Virus record (IMG/VR): IMGVR_UViG_2724679058_000006
DNA: 7,016 nucleotides
Source: a virus
Lineage: Duplodnaviria; Heunggongvirae; Uroviricota; Caudoviricetes
Strand: one strand, 5' to 3'
Position numbers and translations under genes: made by a program. This document shows, in pieces, positions 1 to 6,453 of the stretch (position 1 is its first letter; every line of letters begins with the position of its first letter). Under the pieces are notes generated by a model that worked only from the letters and a program-made list of their open reading frames with translations, was not told where the DNA came from and searched no databases.

Positions 1-311
1 GGATACGGAGGACGGTTGTGGCGCACGTCTTCGGTGAACGCACTCTGGCCACACTGGAGCGTCTTCTGAGCCTGCTGTCGGCCTTTGAGGTCGTGGTATG
101 GATGACGGATGGCTGGCCGCTGTATGAATCCCGCCTGAAGGGAAAGCTGCACGTAATCAGCAAGCGTTACACTCAGCGCATTGAGCGACATAACCTGAAT
201 CTGAGACAACATCTGGCAAGGCTGGGACGGAAGTCACTGTCGTTCTCAAAATCGGTGGAGCTGCATGACAAAGTCATCGGGCATTATCTGAACATAAAAC
301 ACTATCAGTAA
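1..311 (+). CDS. insB: IS1 transposase InsB, C-terminal portion (5' partial; reading frame enters the window at position 3)
   Basis: Open frame from the window edge to TAA at 309..311. The GTG at 18 is an internal Val, not a start. Translation matches the InsB C-terminus from memory. Confidence 0.85.
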
Positions 312-1097: not shown

Positions 1098-1670
1098 CTT
1101 GCACCTATCATAAAATTAAAACAAGTTGATAGCAGTCAAATAACAACCAATTAAATACACAATCATAATCAGGATGATGTGCATTTATATTTTTATACAC
1201 AAAATTATAGTTTGCAAATTTTAATAAATTTCATTTAAGATTAAATTATTATATGTATATTGTTTTTTATTCTAACGTATTTCAAAGTTACATTTTTCAA
1301 CGCTTACTATACTTTTTATTAACATAAACTCACTACAACGCACCTGAAACCTCTTGCTATATATATGTCAACCGTTTGAATTTAAAATAAAAAGAGTATC
1401 ATTTTTACTTGCATTTCTTATCAAGTCACATTCAACAACAGTAAAAAAACATTATTAGAACCATTCAATTAACAAAAAACCAACATCCAGCTTGCTTAAT
1501 TTTTCTTTATTAAACGACATTGAAAATCAATTGATAAAATACATCTAAACAACCTTTTGGGGCGCAAAAGCATAACATCAAACAAACAAATAACACACCG
1601 AAAAAACTCACAATTAATAACCTATGATATACATACTGTTTATTATGGTTGAATAAGCCACTCGATATCT
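1098..1670. promoter_or_regulatory. Long AT-rich upstream/leader region of the AraC-family gene; probable xenogeneic-silencing (H-NS-type) target carrying the regulator's promoter(s)
   Basis: About 570 bp with no credible ORF on either strand and a very high A+T content with many A/T tracts, lying directly upstream of the minus-strand regulator. No promoter hexamers could be assigned confidently. Confidence 0.4.
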
Positions 1671-1772
1671 GGTGCTACGGAAGTGTCCACACGGTTTAGC
1701 AGCACCCGATACTTTTTCCAGGCTTCCAGCAACGAGTTTTCTTCCTCCGTTGCATATACAGCTCACCTTTTT

Positions 1773-2066
1773 TCACCCACGATTAACCAACAGCCAGACC
1801 AGCAGACACGCCACCACCGGCACAGCAAAATCCATCAGGCTTGCCACATCCCACGCGCGCGGATCAAAACCGCCCCACCACGGCATATTCATTCGCTTGC
1901 CATGCCCGAACATTTCGATCCAGCGATATTCTGCCTAGGTGTGTTCACGCGCAATGAAGAACGTACAACCGGCTATCGCCCCGTAAGCCCAGTTCCCGGT
2001 AAAAAGACCAATCAGTAGCTGCGCAGCCACAGCACAAAGCGCATGAAGGAAAGGTGTTATATCCAT
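1773..2066 (-). pseudogene. Small membrane protein gene (97 codons, two predicted transmembrane helices) interrupted by an in-frame amber codon at codon 44 (plus-strand cta at 1935..1937)
   Basis: Minus-strand ATG at 2064..2066 preceded by AGGA with a 5-nt spacer. Translation: MDITPFLHALCAVAAQLLIGLFTGNWAYGAIAGCTFFIAREHT-TAG-AEYRWIEMFGHGKRMNMPWWGGFDPRAWDVASLMDFAVPVVACLLVWLLVNRG*. Both halves are in the same frame and each contains one hydrophobic helix. The antisense plus-strand ORFs in the track translate to low-complexity Pro/His/Arg-rich sequence. Confidence 0.5.
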
Positions 2067-2079
2067 TTTCATCCTACCC

Positions 2080-2102
2080 AATAAAACGGGGCGCTCGGCC
2101 CC
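2080..2102 (-). terminator. Candidate rho-independent terminator after the S74 fiber gene (minus strand: GGGGCCGAGCGCCCC, then G and TTTTATT)
   Basis: 5-bp all-GC stem (GGGGC/GCCCC) with a 5-nt loop, followed on the minus strand by a U-rich tract. It sits between the stop at 2109..2111 and the next start at 2066. Confidence 0.45.
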
Positions 2103-2108
2103 TTAATA

Positions 2109-3149
2109 TTATTTAGACGCAAGCGCCGCCTCAATTGCAGATAATCTTTGTCTTAATTCTGCGTTTTCTTCTTCCAGTGCTGTTATCCTGTCGTCTGACT
2201 CTCTGGCTACCTGAACAAGCAAACCCGTTACGCCTGAGTAATCAACGGTATAGTATCTTTCTCCCTCTTCTCCATCAGACCCATTGTCCCCGCTCTTGTA
2301 CTTTATTGTGCTACCAACTGATTCAGGGATTGCATTAAGTGCCTCTTGCGCAATAACGCCAGCATAAGGCATACCATTAGACTTGAGACGGTAAGTATAC
2401 CCATTCATTAATCTGATGCGCTCAGTGGCATTATCAATAACCTGAATGTTTTCTTTAAGATCTCTGTCCGACACCTGGTCGAATGATGTAGCCTTGCATG
2501 ACCCGTTTATCTCAAGCTGATAGGTTTTATCTGGGTTCCTTTGTGCATAAAACAAAAAAAGCCCGCCATCATCCCTAATTTCATAAACAACTGGACGACT
2601 GGAATTTCCCCATAATAACGTCGACACACCAGAATACGCCGTACCTTGCGTGTTTAGTGTCATGGTCGACCCGTGATTAGCATATTTGATCTGCAATGAG
2701 TCTGTATTATCAAACTTAATAAGCGCGTTACTTCCCCGCACACCATACGACATGAGACAGTTCCCCATCTTAAGGTAACCATCACTGCCTGGAAAAATTA
2801 AAGTTCCTCCGTAAAGATCACTAAAGTCCCAAAAGATACCTTTTGTCCCGTTATGTGTGACGATCCTCGTCATTGTATCTTTAGTACCATCAATATTTTT
2901 TCTGGTATATATGTCACTATAAGCGTTTTCCGTTTCACCAGTCTTATTTGACAAATGCAGCTTACCGCTGAATATAGTTCCAGTTGTTGGCAATGTTTTT
3001 TGATCATAGATTACATTGCAATAACCATTCCATGTTGTTTTATTGTCTACATAAGATTTTGTTGCGTAGTTTCCTTGATCGGTTTTTAATTTACTAACAT
3101 CCGATTTTAGCGTTTTGATGTCATCAGGAATTACTGTTTTTGTAACCAT
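2109..3149 (-). CDS. Tail fiber/tailspike-like protein (346 aa) with C-terminal peptidase-S74 intramolecular chaperone (autoproteolytic) domain
   Basis: RBS GGAG 7 nt upstream of the ATG at 3147..3149, and only 12 nt downstream of the preceding ORF's stop. The C-terminal ~120 aa (residues ~227-346, nt 2112..2471) carries the S74 hallmarks: SDRDLKENI, then YRLKSNGMPYAGVIAQEALNAIPESV, then YYTVDYSGVTGLLVQVARE, then a terminal coiled coil ITALEEENAELRQRLSAIEAALASK. The N-terminal ~226 aa are Gly/Thr/Asn/Tyr-rich, typical of beta-rich fiber tips. Confidence 0.8.
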   Translation of the reverse strand: MVTKTVIPDDIKTLKSDVSKLKTDQGNYATKSYVDNKTTWNGYCNVIYDQKTLPTTGTIFSGKLHLSNKTGETENAYSDIYTRKNIDGTKDTMTRIVTHNGTKGIFWDFSDLYGGTLIFPGSDGYLKMGNCLMSYGVRGSNALIKFDNTDSLQIKYANHGSTMTLNTQGTAYSGVSTLLWGNSSRPVVYEIRDDGGLFLFYAQRNPDKTYQLEINGSCKATSFDQVSDRDLKENIQVIDNATERIRLMNGYTYRLKSNGMPYAGVIAQEALNAIPESVGSTIKYKSGDNGSDGEEGERYYTVDYSGVTGLLVQVARESDDRITALEEENAELRQRLSAIEAALASK

Positions 3150-3161
3150 TGTCTTACTCCA

Positions 3162-3431
3162 TTAAGCCCATGTCCTTACATGCTGATCTGTCGTAATGAA
3201 AGGCATTAAAGAAGATATGTTTTTACTGCTATCAACAATCCTCATGTTTACGAAAAAACCACCGCGATCAATGCCCGTACATCTTTCGTTTTCTGGCTCC
3301 TCGTAATCAATAATGCAGCCAATAACATCAACAAGAACCCCATTTTCTTCTTCAAGACTGAACAGGCCACTGTCATATACAATTGCGTTAAACTGTTCTC
3401 TGTTATCGAATCGTAATGTTATATCCCGCAT
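3162..3431 (-). CDS. Hypothetical small acidic protein (89 aa), translationally coupled to stf; candidate fiber assembly or adaptor factor
   Basis: Its ATG (3429..3431) overlaps the stf stop codon (3431..3433) in a TAATG arrangement. Its stop lies 12 nt before the next gene's RBS. No motif recognised; function unknown. Confidence 0.55.
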   Translation of the reverse strand: MRDITLRFDNREQFNAIVYDSGLFSLEEENGVLVDVIGCIIDYEEPENERCTGIDRGGFFVNMRIVDSSKNISSLMPFITTDQHVRTWA

Positions 3432-5789
3432 TATACGTATTCCTTAAGCTGCGTATCTGACAATGCTCTGTTCCAGAAACGGAGGTTTTTTATATGACCA
3501 TTAAGGTGTCGTAATCCTGTCGTCGTTTGCCCCCCGATTCGAATCACGGCTGCTTCACGAATATATTTCCATACTGTTTTGGTTTCAGTGCTTATATGCT
3601 TATTTGCAAATGAGCATGTCATGCCGTCAGCCTTAACCCTGAATCCCATAACGAGATCTCTTACTCCGCATGACTCATATACACGCCGGTTAGCCCCGCC
3701 TATATCGCAATACGAATAACCATCCTGACTGATAGTTCCAGAAGAACCAAACCCCATAATAAATGGGCCTCCGGACTGGTGATTTTCTGAATCAATGACA
3801 CGCGGTGCAGCATTATGAGAAATAAACCAGTTTTTATGGACTTCCACCATGAACGTAAAAGGCATGGTATACATATTTTTCATCAGCGGAAATTTACATA
3901 AATCTGATGCACGAGTCGCTGGCTCTGTTGTCGTTATGATAAAGGAAGTTGCACAAGCACCATACTCGAATTGCGGGGTGGTTACTTCTATCCAGTCACC
4001 TGTTGCAAAAGCCCCCACTGCTCTGTCGGCTGCAATTTGCAGCTGCGTACCAACCATTCCCCATTCTGGCAGACATTTCAGTGTTGCCTGAAAATATATC
4101 CATCCACTACCAGGGTCGATTTCAAAGTTTGCTGTTAATAGCTGGGCATTACCACCCGTAATTTGTAGTTCATGAGTCTGTAATGACAAATAGGCGTCAC
4201 AAAGGAAAGTGTATCCTTCCGAGTTATACCGTTCAAAACGGATACGTGCGCGAACATTGAGATCACTTCTTACCCTGAACGACGCGGTAACATACGGACC
4301 TTTACTGTACTGATCATCGCCAGTCACATCTATGCCTTTATTACCAGCAACTGTGCATATATTTCTCCCTGTTGTCGTTCCTGCTATGTCGCTTCCTACT
4401 GTGAAACGTCCATATTTAAACTCAAATTCATCTGTTGATGATGTTACAGATATACCACCGCTTTTATTCCACGCATCAGGATTAAAACTATTTACGAACA
4501 TGTTTGTTCGCTGATTCTCTATCAGCAAACCATATTTTTCAAAACGAGGAACGTTATTCCCTGCCACGGTAATATGCCCGGACTTATCAATATACGTTGC
4601 TGATGAAGCGCGGCTAAATTGGCATATGCCATTAACAGGCATTGTTATTTCATCACTGCCGATGGTTATTGTTTTATAGCCCGGGGCATACCCTGTTATC
4701 GCTTCCAGAGAATCATTCAAGGGTAGCCAGATATCAGGAAGCGGAGGGACTGAAGCAGGATCAGCGGCATCTTCTGCAATCCGGGCTGCATTCTCTGCTC
4801 TTGTTGCGGCTGACGTTGCTTCTATCTCGCTGGCTGCTGCTTTTGTTTCACTCGTCTTTGCGTTAGTTTCACTGGTTTTTGCAGCTTTTTGGCTATTAGC
4901 TGCCGCACTTGCAGAACCAGCTGCGGCACTCTCGCTTTGGGCCGCTGCATCCTGACTGTTTTTTTGCCGCAGTTTCGCTGGCTTTGGCATTCGTTTCGCT
5001 GGTCTTCGCTGCCGTCTGGCTGGACTTTGCGTTAGTTTCACTCGTCTTCGCAGCTTTCTGGCTGTTAGCCGCAGCAGTTGCTGATCCAGCTGCTGAAGTC
5101 GCAGAACCGGCTGCTGCGCTCTCGCTTTCAGCTGCTGCAGCCTGGCTATTTTTCGCCGCAGTTTCACTGGCTTTGGCATTCGTTTCGCTGGTTTTCGCTG
5201 CCGTCTGGCTGGACTTTGCGTTGGTTTCGCTCGTCTTTGCGGCTGTCTCGCTGTTTTTCGCGTTGGTTTCTGATTTTTTGGCTGCTGTCGCGGAGTTTGC
5301 CGATGCAGTCTGCGAGGACGCTGCCGCCTGTGCGCTGTTAGCTGCATTCGTTTCTGAGGTTTTCGCCGCGTTCTTCGATGATGCCGCTGCAGTTTCGGAT
5401 TTCTTTGCCACCGCTGCGCTCTGAGAGGCGGCTTCGGCGTTGCGTGCCGCTTCTTCCACCATTGCCTCAAAACGACGCAATGCCTCCGGCATGACATCAT
5501 CTTCCGTCATGGCACCGAGAAAATCATTCAGCGTACCTGGTCTGGAACCTTCATAGACGGTAATGGTTCCGGCATGTGAAGGCGGAAAACCTTCAACCAG
5601 CAGGGTGACGCTGTACTGGCCATACTCAACATCCATGCTGTAACGCCCGGCTTCATCCGGATTTTCAGAGGCCACCGTGTTCACCAGTACCGTGGTGCTG
5701 TTACGCTTTGCCTTCAGTTGAATAGTGCAGTTCTGTATTGGTTTTCCCGCACCATCTTTCAGCACACCTGAGATTTTTACTGCTGCCAT
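3431..5789 (-). CDS. stf: Side tail fiber protein Stf (~785 aa if contiguous): lambda-Stf-like N-terminus, Ala/Ser/Thr/Lys heptad-repeat shaft, non-lambda C-terminal LamG-like lectin-type domain. The frame is interrupted by a 1-nt insertion in an A7 tract (plus-strand T7 at 4959..4965), so it may be annotated as a pseudogene or as two fragments (4896..5795 and 3431..5500)
   Basis: N-terminus MAAVKISGVLKDGAGKPIQNCTIQLKAKRNSTTV..GRYSMDVEYGQYSV..GFPPSHAGTITVYE matches lambda Stf from memory. GGAG lies 5 nt upstream of the ATG at 5787..5789; the GTG at 5795 used in the ORF track is probably not the start. The two track ORFs (299 aa and 689 aa) are in adjacent frames and overlap. The first ~190 aa of the 689-aa ORF are Arg/Lys/Pro/Gln-rich out-of-frame translation of the repeats. 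Removing one A from the A7 run joins the frames seamlessly and gives ..ASETAAKNSQDAAAQSESAAAGSA.., parallel to the neighbouring repeat copy ..ASETAAKNSQAAAAESESAAAGSA... The C-terminus ..GHIKNLRFWNRALSDTQLKEYV resembles the conserved end of LamG_3/concanavalin-like domains. Confidence 0.8.
4881..5240. repeat. Imperfect tandem duplication (about 169 bp and 191 bp copies) inside stf; part of a longer low-complexity region (~4760..5405) encoding 7-residue Ala/Ser/Thr/Lys repeats (AAKTSET / NAKSSQT / NAKASET ...)
   Basis: Direct comparison of 4881..5049 with 5050..5240: shared blocks gcagcttt[t/c]tggct[a/g]ttagc ... gccgcagtttc[g/a]ctggctttggcattcgtttcgctggt[c/t]ttcgctgccgtctggctggactttgcgtt[a/g]gtttc[a/g]ctcgtctt. 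Copy 1 lacks ~21 bp present in copy 2 and has one extra T in its T-run. Confidence 0.7.
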
Positions 5790-5799
5790 ATCCACTCCA

Positions 5800-5827
5800 C
5801 AAAAAAGCCCGCCTGAACCGGCGGGCT
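5800..5827 (-). terminator. Candidate rho-independent terminator after lom (minus strand: AGCCCGCC GGTTCA GGCGGGCT then TTTTTT)
   Basis: 8-bp GC-rich stem (plus 5806..5813 pairs with 5820..5827), 6-nt loop, followed on the minus strand by T6 (plus A6 at 5801..5806). Lies between the lom stop (5854) and the stf RBS. Confidence 0.6.
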
Positions 5828-5853
5828 GTCATAACACTGTGTTACCTGGCTAA

Positions 5854-6453
5854 TCAGAATTTATAACCGACACCCACGATGAAACCGTCAGTGCGCCAGT
5901 CGCCACTGCCGGAGCCTTCATAAGCAATATCAATGGCCACGGATTCGGTCGGGTTAAACTGCACGCCAGCTCCCCACGCCAGAGACGTGTTGCTGTGGCG
6001 ATCGTCATCACTTCCGGTCAGCACATCGTGCGTTTTCCCCTTGTTGTCAGTTACGCGGAGATAATCCCCGGAGAACGTCGAAACACGGCTGTAAGCCACA
6101 CCTGCCATCGCATAAGCACTGAACCATTCATTCACGCGTACAGATGGCCCCGCCATCATGCTGAACCAGCGGTTACGCACTGAATCTTCATGCCAGCGGG
6201 TATCGCTGTAATGCGTTTTTTGCTCATCTTTGGCATTGGCATAACTGAATGACGTCACCAGCCCCAGCGTGTCCGTAAATTCATAACGGTATTTCACGTT
6301 AATGCCCTTCAGGTCATCACTGCCTGGCATATCAGTATAGGTCTGAAGATACCCGGCGCTTAGTGTGGACTGATGCTCTGCTGCGCTCGCTGGCGTACCA
6401 GCGGCAACCAGCCAGACTACTGCGGACAGAATAACAGCACATAATTTACGCAT
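5854..6453 (-). CDS. lom: Lom-like outer membrane protein (Ail/Lom/PagC family beta-barrel), 199 aa with signal peptide
   Basis: N-terminal signal peptide MRKLCAVILSAVVWLVAAGTPASA. C-terminus ..IDIAYEGSGSGDWRTDGFIVGVGYKF is identical in character to lambda Lom as recalled. KGINVKYRYE and AYAMAGVA motifs are shared with lambda Lom. RBS GAGAGG upstream of the ATG at 6451..6453. Confidence 0.9.
   Translation of the reverse strand: MRKLCAVILSAVVWLVAAGTPASAAEHQSTLSAGYLQTYTDMPGSDDLKGINVKYRYEFTDTLGLVTSFSYANAKDEQKTHYSDTRWHEDSVRNRWFSMMAGPSVRVNEWFSAYAMAGVAYSRVSTFSGDYLRVTDNKGKTHDVLTGSDDDRHSNTSLAWGAGVQFNPTESVAIDIAYEGSGSGDWRTDGFIVGVGYKF

Follow-up and report, generated by a model that had tools for sequence, protein, structure and literature searches.

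Gene organization around ORF89

The window, that is, the whole stretch of 7,016 nucleotides analyzed in this study, is the right end of a lambdoid E. coli prophage. It contains the C-terminal part of J, lom, stf, an open reading frame of 89 codons (ORF89), a second fibre gene with a Peptidase_S74 domain (fibre B), decayed genes, appY, and a short ORF (18..311) which we take to be a fragment of IS1 InsB. An identical 3.9-kb stretch was found in dozens of complete E. coli genomes, beside appY-ompT-envY, a site that in K-12 is occupied by the DLP12 remnant. The features referred to in the text are as follows.

5806..5827, minus strand: terminator-like hairpin after lom, bounding the stf-ORF89-fibre B unit on its upstream side
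3431..5795, minus strand: stf, the whole side-tail-fibre gene, with a phage_tail_N N-terminus (PF08400, E=5e-67), Ala/Ser/Thr-rich repeats and a lectin-like tip; frameshifted
4959..4965 (about), minus strand: frameshift site of stf, an A7 run
3434..4753, minus strand: C-terminal ~440 aa of Stf, the GTA-head-spike-fibre/LamG (galectin-like) distal region (NCBIfam, Pfam, PHROG 1419)
3441..3445, minus strand: Shine-Dalgarno-like AAGGA inside the end of stf, 9 nt 5' of the ORF89 ATG (read from the sequence)
3162..3431, minus strand: ORF89, 89 codons, ATG start, TAA stop at 3164..3162 (ORF list and sequence)
3150..3161, minus strand: 12-nt spacer from the ORF89 stop to the ATG (3149..3147) of the 346-aa fibre gene, with GGAG at 3160..3157
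2109..3149, minus strand: fibre B, 346 aa, with an N-terminal docking motif and a C-terminal Peptidase_S74 domain (PF13884, E=2e-12), PHROG 4563
2088..2102, minus strand: terminator-like GC hairpin immediately 3' of fibre B, bounding the same unit on its downstream side
1773-2081, minus strand: gene of a PHROG 1443 protein
348-1097: appY (AraC-type regulator), flanking the prophage end

ORF89 is read on the minus strand, from 3431 to 3162, a point on which the original prediction was silent. As that prediction had stated, ORF89 starts within the stop codon of stf; the sequence at the junction is TAATG, in which the last A of the stf TAA (3433..3431) also belongs to the ORF89 ATG (3431..3429). 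The gap of 12 nt behind ORF89 has the size that was predicted, but it ends elsewhere. That is, it reaches the next start codon, and the ribosome-binding site that was thought to bound it lies inside it.

The ORF89 protein has a mass of about 10 kDa and is acidic, with a pI of 4.38 and 16 Asp and Glu residues as compared to 8 Lys and Arg residues. The highest Kyte-Doolittle mean over 19 residues was 1.25, and thus no transmembrane segment is predicted in it. Both properties agree with those claimed before.

We searched the minus strand at the two junctions of ORF89 (3150..3161 and 3431..3445) and found no terminator-like site, and neither a promoter of its own nor an internal terminator was found flanking the gene. 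Since the hairpins lie only outside the three genes and none is present at the ORF89 junctions, stf, ORF89 and the second fibre gene look like a single transcription unit.

In this window, stf is divided into two overlapping ORFs (4896..5795 and 3431..5500). A global DNA alignment to the intact 787-aa gene of another prophage (L055) showed a +1 frameshift, in which the window has A7 where intact alleles read G+A5 (GCGGCAAAAAAACAG versus GCGGCGAAAAACAG), and the length of the gene is 2365 nt here as compared to 2364 nt. Thus, stf is broken in this lineage by one extra base in the poly-A run at about 4959-4965. In RefSeq, a pseudogene flag is set on the N-terminal part of stf. The lineage with the broken stf keeps ORF89 and the second fibre gene intact, and the Stf of PhiR55_1 is intact. 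Slippage could occur at the A7 homopolymer.

Two further observations were made downstream in the prophage. At about 1643-1753 (minus strand), the RefSeq annotation has a truncated tfa remnant, which is probably what is left of an older Stf-Tfa allele that the present cassette replaced. A membrane protein of ~97 aa with two transmembrane segments (PHROG 1443, of unknown function) recurs in phage 21, PhiR55_1 and other prophages, where its gene lies just 3' of the fibre module (for example, at 5590-5883 of locus L117 and 6970-7263 of locus L001). The copy in the window is a pseudogene with an internal stop. This protein may be the product of an exclusion or cargo gene.

Conservation and distribution of the ORF89 family

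ORF89 had been regarded as an orphan without a recognizable motif. This description has to be given up, because ORF89 is a member of PHROG 1361 ("unknown function"), a family of more than 100 sequence clusters. Residues 1-89 of ORF89 aligned to profile positions 1-92 of 92 with E=9.6e-31, and the rV5-like homologue also matched PHROG 1361 (E=6.5e-27). A search with an alignment as the query gave 115 homologous clusters, all of 88-92 aa and all labelled 'hypothetical'; a query with the single sequence gave only 4 fragments.

ORF89 is 100% identical to a gene of PhiR55_1 (complete genome, host E. coli C), and the same allele (at least 95% nucleotide identity) was found in 141 of 5,426 complete E. 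coli genomes. When the window's ORF89 was used in tblastn (E<=1e-3), 40 phage records were obtained, with 28-37% identity outside its own clade. The homologues of Warwickvirus tunus and Vequintavirus JeffSchatz were missed by tblastn and matched the profile with E=6e-39 and 1.6e-16, respectively. Taken together, homologues of 88-110 aa with 28-40% identity and a maintained reading frame were found in lambdoid phages (phage 21 among them), T5-like phages, T1-like phages, Seuratvirus/Nonagvirus, rV5-like myoviruses and metagenomic contigs.

The residues M1, D3, F8, D35, I37, G38, G58, N62, R64, R86 and W88 are nearly or fully invariant in the family, and M1, D3, G38, R64 and W88 are invariant in the alignments of the homologues. 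Both ends of the protein are conserved, the N-terminus as M followed by D(I/L/F)xL and F, and the C-terminus as P(I/L/V)RxWA. The pN/pS values among the ORF89 alleles of three clades were 0.17, 0.41 and 0.08, which point to purifying selection. A chance ORF is ruled out by the full-length match to PHROG 1361, by the conservation of frame and length in related prophages and phages, and by these pN/pS values. On the same grounds, the claim that ORF89 is a really translated gene is well supported. No homology to a family of unrelated function was found.

The family has few members and a narrow distribution. A profile search of 1.84 billion representative proteins gave 98 matches, some of which are spurious, and no relative was found among the GTDB species representatives (one genome per species). 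We judged six giant multi-repeat proteins (P0137, P0143, P0157, P0173, P0179 and P0188) to be spurious relatives. They contain PKD-like repeats in which a motif of the YxVxVRVxDDDG type occurs 5-10 times, so that the likeness is one of composition and motif.

Nearly every record that we inspected labels the members of this family 'hypothetical protein'. The homologue of IrisVonRoten (GenBank MZ501075 bas32_0023) is labelled 'tail fiber protein'.

Predicted structure of the ORF89 protein

An AF2 model of ORF89 was built from an alignment of 75 sequences and was moderately confident (pLDDT 78, pTM 0.68). The model predicts a small alpha/beta protein with the order beta1-alpha1-beta2-beta3-beta4-beta5-alpha2. 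The C-terminal tail with the invariant RxWA was modelled at low confidence (pLDDT 63 in the last block of 10 residues).

Foldseek, which the original prediction had proposed as a check, gave no match of this model in the PDB below E=0.02, and no solved fibre chaperone resembled it. A search of BFVD with the model gave only uncharacterized small phage proteins. At the sequence level, a Pfam scan at E<=1 gave a sub-threshold match to Herpeto_peptide only, with neither PF02413 nor PF13884; the NCBIfam search gave nothing relevant, the PDB sequence search was empty, and PADLOC gave 0 hits. These structure and sequence searches indicate that ORF89 is neither a Tfa/Caudo_TAP nor an S74 protein and is unlike any solved chaperone. 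That is, it has no relation in sequence or fold to the known chaperones.

Association of ORF89 with the LamG-like tip of the fibre

The distal region of Stf matched GTA_spike_fiber of NCBIfam (E=1.7e-12) and Laminin_G_3 of Pfam (E=1e-3), both of which are weak matches. This LamG-like C-terminal region is present in 205-226 phage records. In IrisVonRoten, the homologous region of Gp22 has been called a 'galectin-like domain' that projects from the end of the fibre (PMC11990801). When the fibres that precede ORF89 homologues were aligned, their N-terminal parts were specific to each phage, and the C-terminal region of ~440 aa was common to them.

We then used the fibre C-terminus as the sole query against IMG/VR. 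In 78 of 80 loci (the best 80 of 306), an ORF matching the ORF89 profile began at -1 to +14 nt from the fibre stop. One of the two exceptions was a contig that ended 27 nt past the fibre gene, and the other had an IS3 insertion. Since the closest 80 of the 306 loci were taken, this set consists mostly of E. coli prophages. The tight link between ORF89 and stf that was claimed earlier is supported by this adjacency.

In every phage locus that we inspected, the ORF89 homologue begins at or just past the fibre stop (within 14 nt). The loci in which the fibre gene is followed by the homologue are listed below.

Lambdoid phages: PhiR55_1, phage 21
Tequintavirus: IrisVonRoten, AKFV33, KookSpook
Seuratvirus: VogelGryff, SA126VB, phiG7
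Others: Warwickvirus tunus, Vequintavirus JeffSchatz

The same arrangement was seen in the remote metagenomic relatives, of which we examined six (profile E down to 1e-11). Five of them follow a large ORF ending in a LamG-like tail (...HIRxLRIWHRALTDxQIKGLR). The contig of the sixth (L124) begins just before the small ORF, and a LamG-like ORF lies directly downstream.

The distances among ORF89 alleles and those among fibre tips were moderately correlated in a non-redundant set (r=0.31), and no segment of the fibre stood out. A mirror-tree comparison of fibre segments with ORF89 gave rho values of 0.33-0.72, a flat distribution without a peak in which population structure dominates, and we kept this correlation out of the evidence for a partnership. 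In two related loci (L031 and L032), the last ~150 aa of the fibre differ and the small ORFs are nearly identical.

Some records with other host names (MG0656xx, 'Campylobacter phage'; OR84xxxx/OR85xxxx, fragments of 'Listeria' and 'Salmonella' phages) contain T5-like or rV5-like fibre modules that hardly differ from those of E. coli phages. The host labels of these records look doubtful.

Allelic exchange at fibre-tip loci

The fibres of rV5 (gp41, 1272 aa) and JeffSchatz (gp26, 1479 aa) share 91% identity over residues 1-1049, beyond which they diverge. The end of rV5 gp41 is a Peptidase_S74 intramolecular chaperone, and a six-frame search of the rV5 fibre locus with the ORF89 profile gave no match. 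The end of JeffSchatz gp26 is a LamG-like region, which is followed by an ORF89 homologue of 110 aa. From 5 nt past the respective stops, the DNA of the two phages is identical, through a hairpin, a promoter-like region, the ribosome-binding site and gp40. This pair of loci (rV5 gp41-gp40, L127, and JeffSchatz bas55_0026-0028, L035) thus presents a clean allelic replacement with a breakpoint near fibre residue 1050. Because the flanks are identical and one allele ends in S74 and the other in LamG plus the small ORF, the ORF89 homologue lies inside the exchanged cassette and in the place of the chaperone of the other allele. ORF89 is strictly adjacent to the LamG-like tip and is transferred together with it.

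A similar relation is seen among the lambdoid phages. Phage 21 has a LamG-tipped Stf and an ORF89 homologue without tfa, and lambda has Stf and Tfa. This bears out the proposal that ORF89 occupies the position in which such phages keep a fibre chaperone. The fibres of T5 and DT57C carry S74 chaperones, and no ORF89-like gene is reported for them (PMC4728585).

Possible function of ORF89

We think that the ORF89 protein is probably a trans-acting assembly partner of the LamG/galectin-like fibre tip. This reading is favoured by the stoichiometric co-expression, the obligate adjacency to a single type of tip in siphoviruses as well as myoviruses, the co-transfer, and the occupancy of the chaperone slot. 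Among the roles suggested for ORF89 at the outset, that of an assembly factor fits the co-occurrence data best, and the function itself is proposed from sequence.

The proposed mechanism is as follows. ORF89 is a translated late gene of the PHROG 1361 family, encoding an acidic protein of predicted alpha/beta structure, and it is obligately linked, as a gene, to the LamG/galectin-like distal domain within a horizontally mobile cassette of side or lateral tail fibres. By the overlapping stop and start codons, the protein would be made in step with the fibre from a common transcript. It would most likely bind conserved parts of the fibre C-terminal region and help this region to fold or assemble, and it would take the role that a separate Tfa or an attached Peptidase_S74 has in other alleles at these fibre loci. 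The ORF89 protein is conserved and not hypervariable, as seen in the L031 and L032 pair. This speaks for contact with conserved portions of the fibre and against contact with the receptor.

Several points count against an assembly partner. A globular lectin-like domain can often fold unaided, and the need for a chaperone is therefore not self-evident; moreover, the tracking of allele distances between ORF89 and the tip is only moderate (r=0.31). In addition, the fibre complex of IrisVonRoten as published in an AF-Multimer model does not include the ORF89 homologue (PMC11990801).

It is possible, although we consider it rather unlikely, that the ORF89 protein is a structural component, present in stoichiometric amounts and retained on the virion, where it would clamp or cap the lectin-like tip. 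There it might hold the three chains together, mask or tune the glycan-binding site, or add a receptor contact. In a more specific form, about which we are likewise doubtful, a permanent subunit of ~10 kDa would dock by its RxWA tail on the three lectin-like domains and either nucleate trimerisation, in a fibre without a C-terminal trimeric knob, or gate glycan binding until virion release. The translational coupling, which implies near-equimolar synthesis of ORF89 and the fibre, speaks for a virion subunit, and co-transfer with the fibre tip fits a subunit as it does an assembly partner. The invariant RxWA end, with its low confidence in the model, would fit a docking tail. The GenBank label on the IrisVonRoten homologue also speaks for a structural protein, and gp38 of T2 may be likened to an ORF89 protein retained on the virion. 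A precedent is offered by the Alteromonas phages, for which 'transient chaperone caps' were proposed (PMC10579305).

On the other hand, the literature gave no virion proteomics for any phage carrying ORF89; the virion proteomics of rV5 is silent on this protein because rV5 has the S74 allele without the ORF. ORF89 is also not hypervariable in the way of an adhesin in contact with the receptor, since the small ORFs of L031 and L032 are nearly identical despite their different tips.

The second fibre

The original prediction offered another role for ORF89, that of a new fibre adaptor. Spelled out, ORF89 would then link Stf and the 346-aa protein as a branch adaptor, by which the second fibre (in other phages, the T-shaped fibre) is docked onto the distal end of Stf. 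In most of the lambdoid, T5-like and Seuratvirus loci, ORF89 does sit between two fibre genes. The first ~15 residues of fibre B (window 3105-3149, minus strand; M-xTxTxIPxDIxxLK) are kept in the modules of these three groups and in LtfB of DT57C. Beyond the N-terminus, fibre B is freely exchanged, and its counterpart in PhiR55_1 shares only the first ~37 aa. The N-terminal motif looks like a universal docking peptide. In VogelGryff, the second fibre (MZ501110 bas25_0024) is labelled 'putative lateral tail fiber chaperone'.

If ORF89 served to attach the second fibre, it should be absent when the second fibre is absent. On the contrary, at least five types of loci have an ORF89 homologue without fibre B. 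They are phage 21; L012, L013 and L068, in which the homologue is the last prophage gene and is followed by host genes which we take to be zntB/dbpA from their N-terminal sequences; L031 and L032, in which the fibre N-terminus is myovirus-like as judged by eye; the deletion variants L060 and L062; and the rV5-like L035. Conversely, the fibre B motif was found in 155 phage records, most of which are without ORF89, including LtfB of DT57C, Dhillonvirus and T1-like fibres, as compared to the 40 records obtained with ORF89 by tblastn (E<=1e-3). Furthermore, no ORF intervenes between the adjacent genes of Gp9 and Gp10 in AnnaHegner, and in the model published for IrisVonRoten, Gp24 is joined directly to Gp22 (PMC11990801). 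In that paper the naming is inconsistent, the proximal fibre being Gp22 in the figure legend and Gp23 in the text.

Because ORF89 occurs without a second fibre and the fibre B motif is widespread without ORF89, an adaptor role is improbable. Fibre B is an optional neighbour of ORF89, not an obligate partner.

The suggestion that ORF89 is a small moron, that is, an accessory gene with no link to the fibre (for defence, exclusion or host modulation, for example) that is merely carried along behind the late genes, could appeal to the lack of an assigned function and to the cargo often held at prophage ends (e.g., sitABCD in phage 21), but it is very improbable, since ORF89 has no promoter or terminator of its own and no PADLOC match, its homologues in strictly virulent T5-, rV5- and T1-like phages always abut one type of fibre, and it is exchanged strictly together with the LamG-like tip.

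Significance of a probable assembly partner

The tips of tail fibres are the main target of host-range engineering, and more than 200 coliphages and Salmonella phages that have been sequenced possess the LamG-like tip. If this tip needs ORF89, engineered tip swaps must carry ORF89 along. The natural exchanges in the rV5-like phages do carry the ORF89 homologue along with the tip.

An assembly partner would give the PHROG 1361 family a working function, and it would be a third solution for fibre-tip assembly in Enterobacteria phages, beside Tfa and S74. If the protein were instead a permanent subunit, it would represent a new class of fibre-tip accessory subunit common to siphoviruses and myoviruses. 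Helper genes 3' of fibre genes are already known, and in this respect the finding is incremental. What would be new is a structurally unrelated family of fibre helper, one that is catalogued but uncharacterized.

Comparison with known systems

In our search of the literature we found no paper that assigns a role to the ORF89 family. The window resembles the T5-like branched or T-shaped fibres, namely LtfA-LtfB of DT57C and Gp22-Gp24 of IrisVonRoten, in having a proximal fibre and a second fibre that docks by a conserved N-terminus (PMC4728585, PMC11990801). DT57C has neither ORF89 nor the lectin-like tip, and in IrisVonRoten the ORF89 homologue is Gp23. Neither of these papers assigns a role to the homologue; for IrisVonRoten, the BASEL follow-up presents a model of Gp22 and Gp24 and no discussion of Gp23 (PMC11990801).

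The fibres of the Alteromonas phages A5 and V22 are like the present case in that a fibre and a small cognate partner form a module common to morphologically unrelated families (PMC10579305). Their partner may be a chaperone, a transient cap, or both. The protein families and the fold of the tip are different from those of ORF89, and chaperone dependence in the Alteromonas phages was tested experimentally (PMC10579305), whereas ORF89 is known here from sequence comparison.

The Tfa-type proteins (lambda Tfa, P2 gpG and Mu gpU; Caudo_TAP, PF02413) are encoded, like ORF89, by a separate gene directly 3' of the fibre gene. Also like ORF89, they are exchanged together with the C-terminal receptor-binding part of the fibre, a trait that the 78 of 80 loci (best 80 of 306) share. 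In contrast, ORF89 has ~90 aa as compared to ~190 aa for Tfa, it has no Caudo_TAP match and no structural similarity in the PDB, and it partners a globular lectin-like tip, whereas Tfa partners a Tfa-dependent fibre tip.

The S74 chaperones (T5 pb1, DT57C LtfA/LtfB, rV5 gp41 and the K1F endosialidase) differ from ORF89 in that they are covalently attached, self-cleaving domains of the fibre, whereas ORF89 is a separate polypeptide. ORF89 has no PF13884 match, and its partner Stf ends in a LamG-like region, not in S74; the 346-aa neighbour carries an S74 domain of its own. Nevertheless, the S74 chaperones and ORF89 hold an equivalent 3' place in the tip cassette, and in Vequintavirus the S74-tipped allele and the LamG-tipped allele with its small ORF replace each other between identical flanks.
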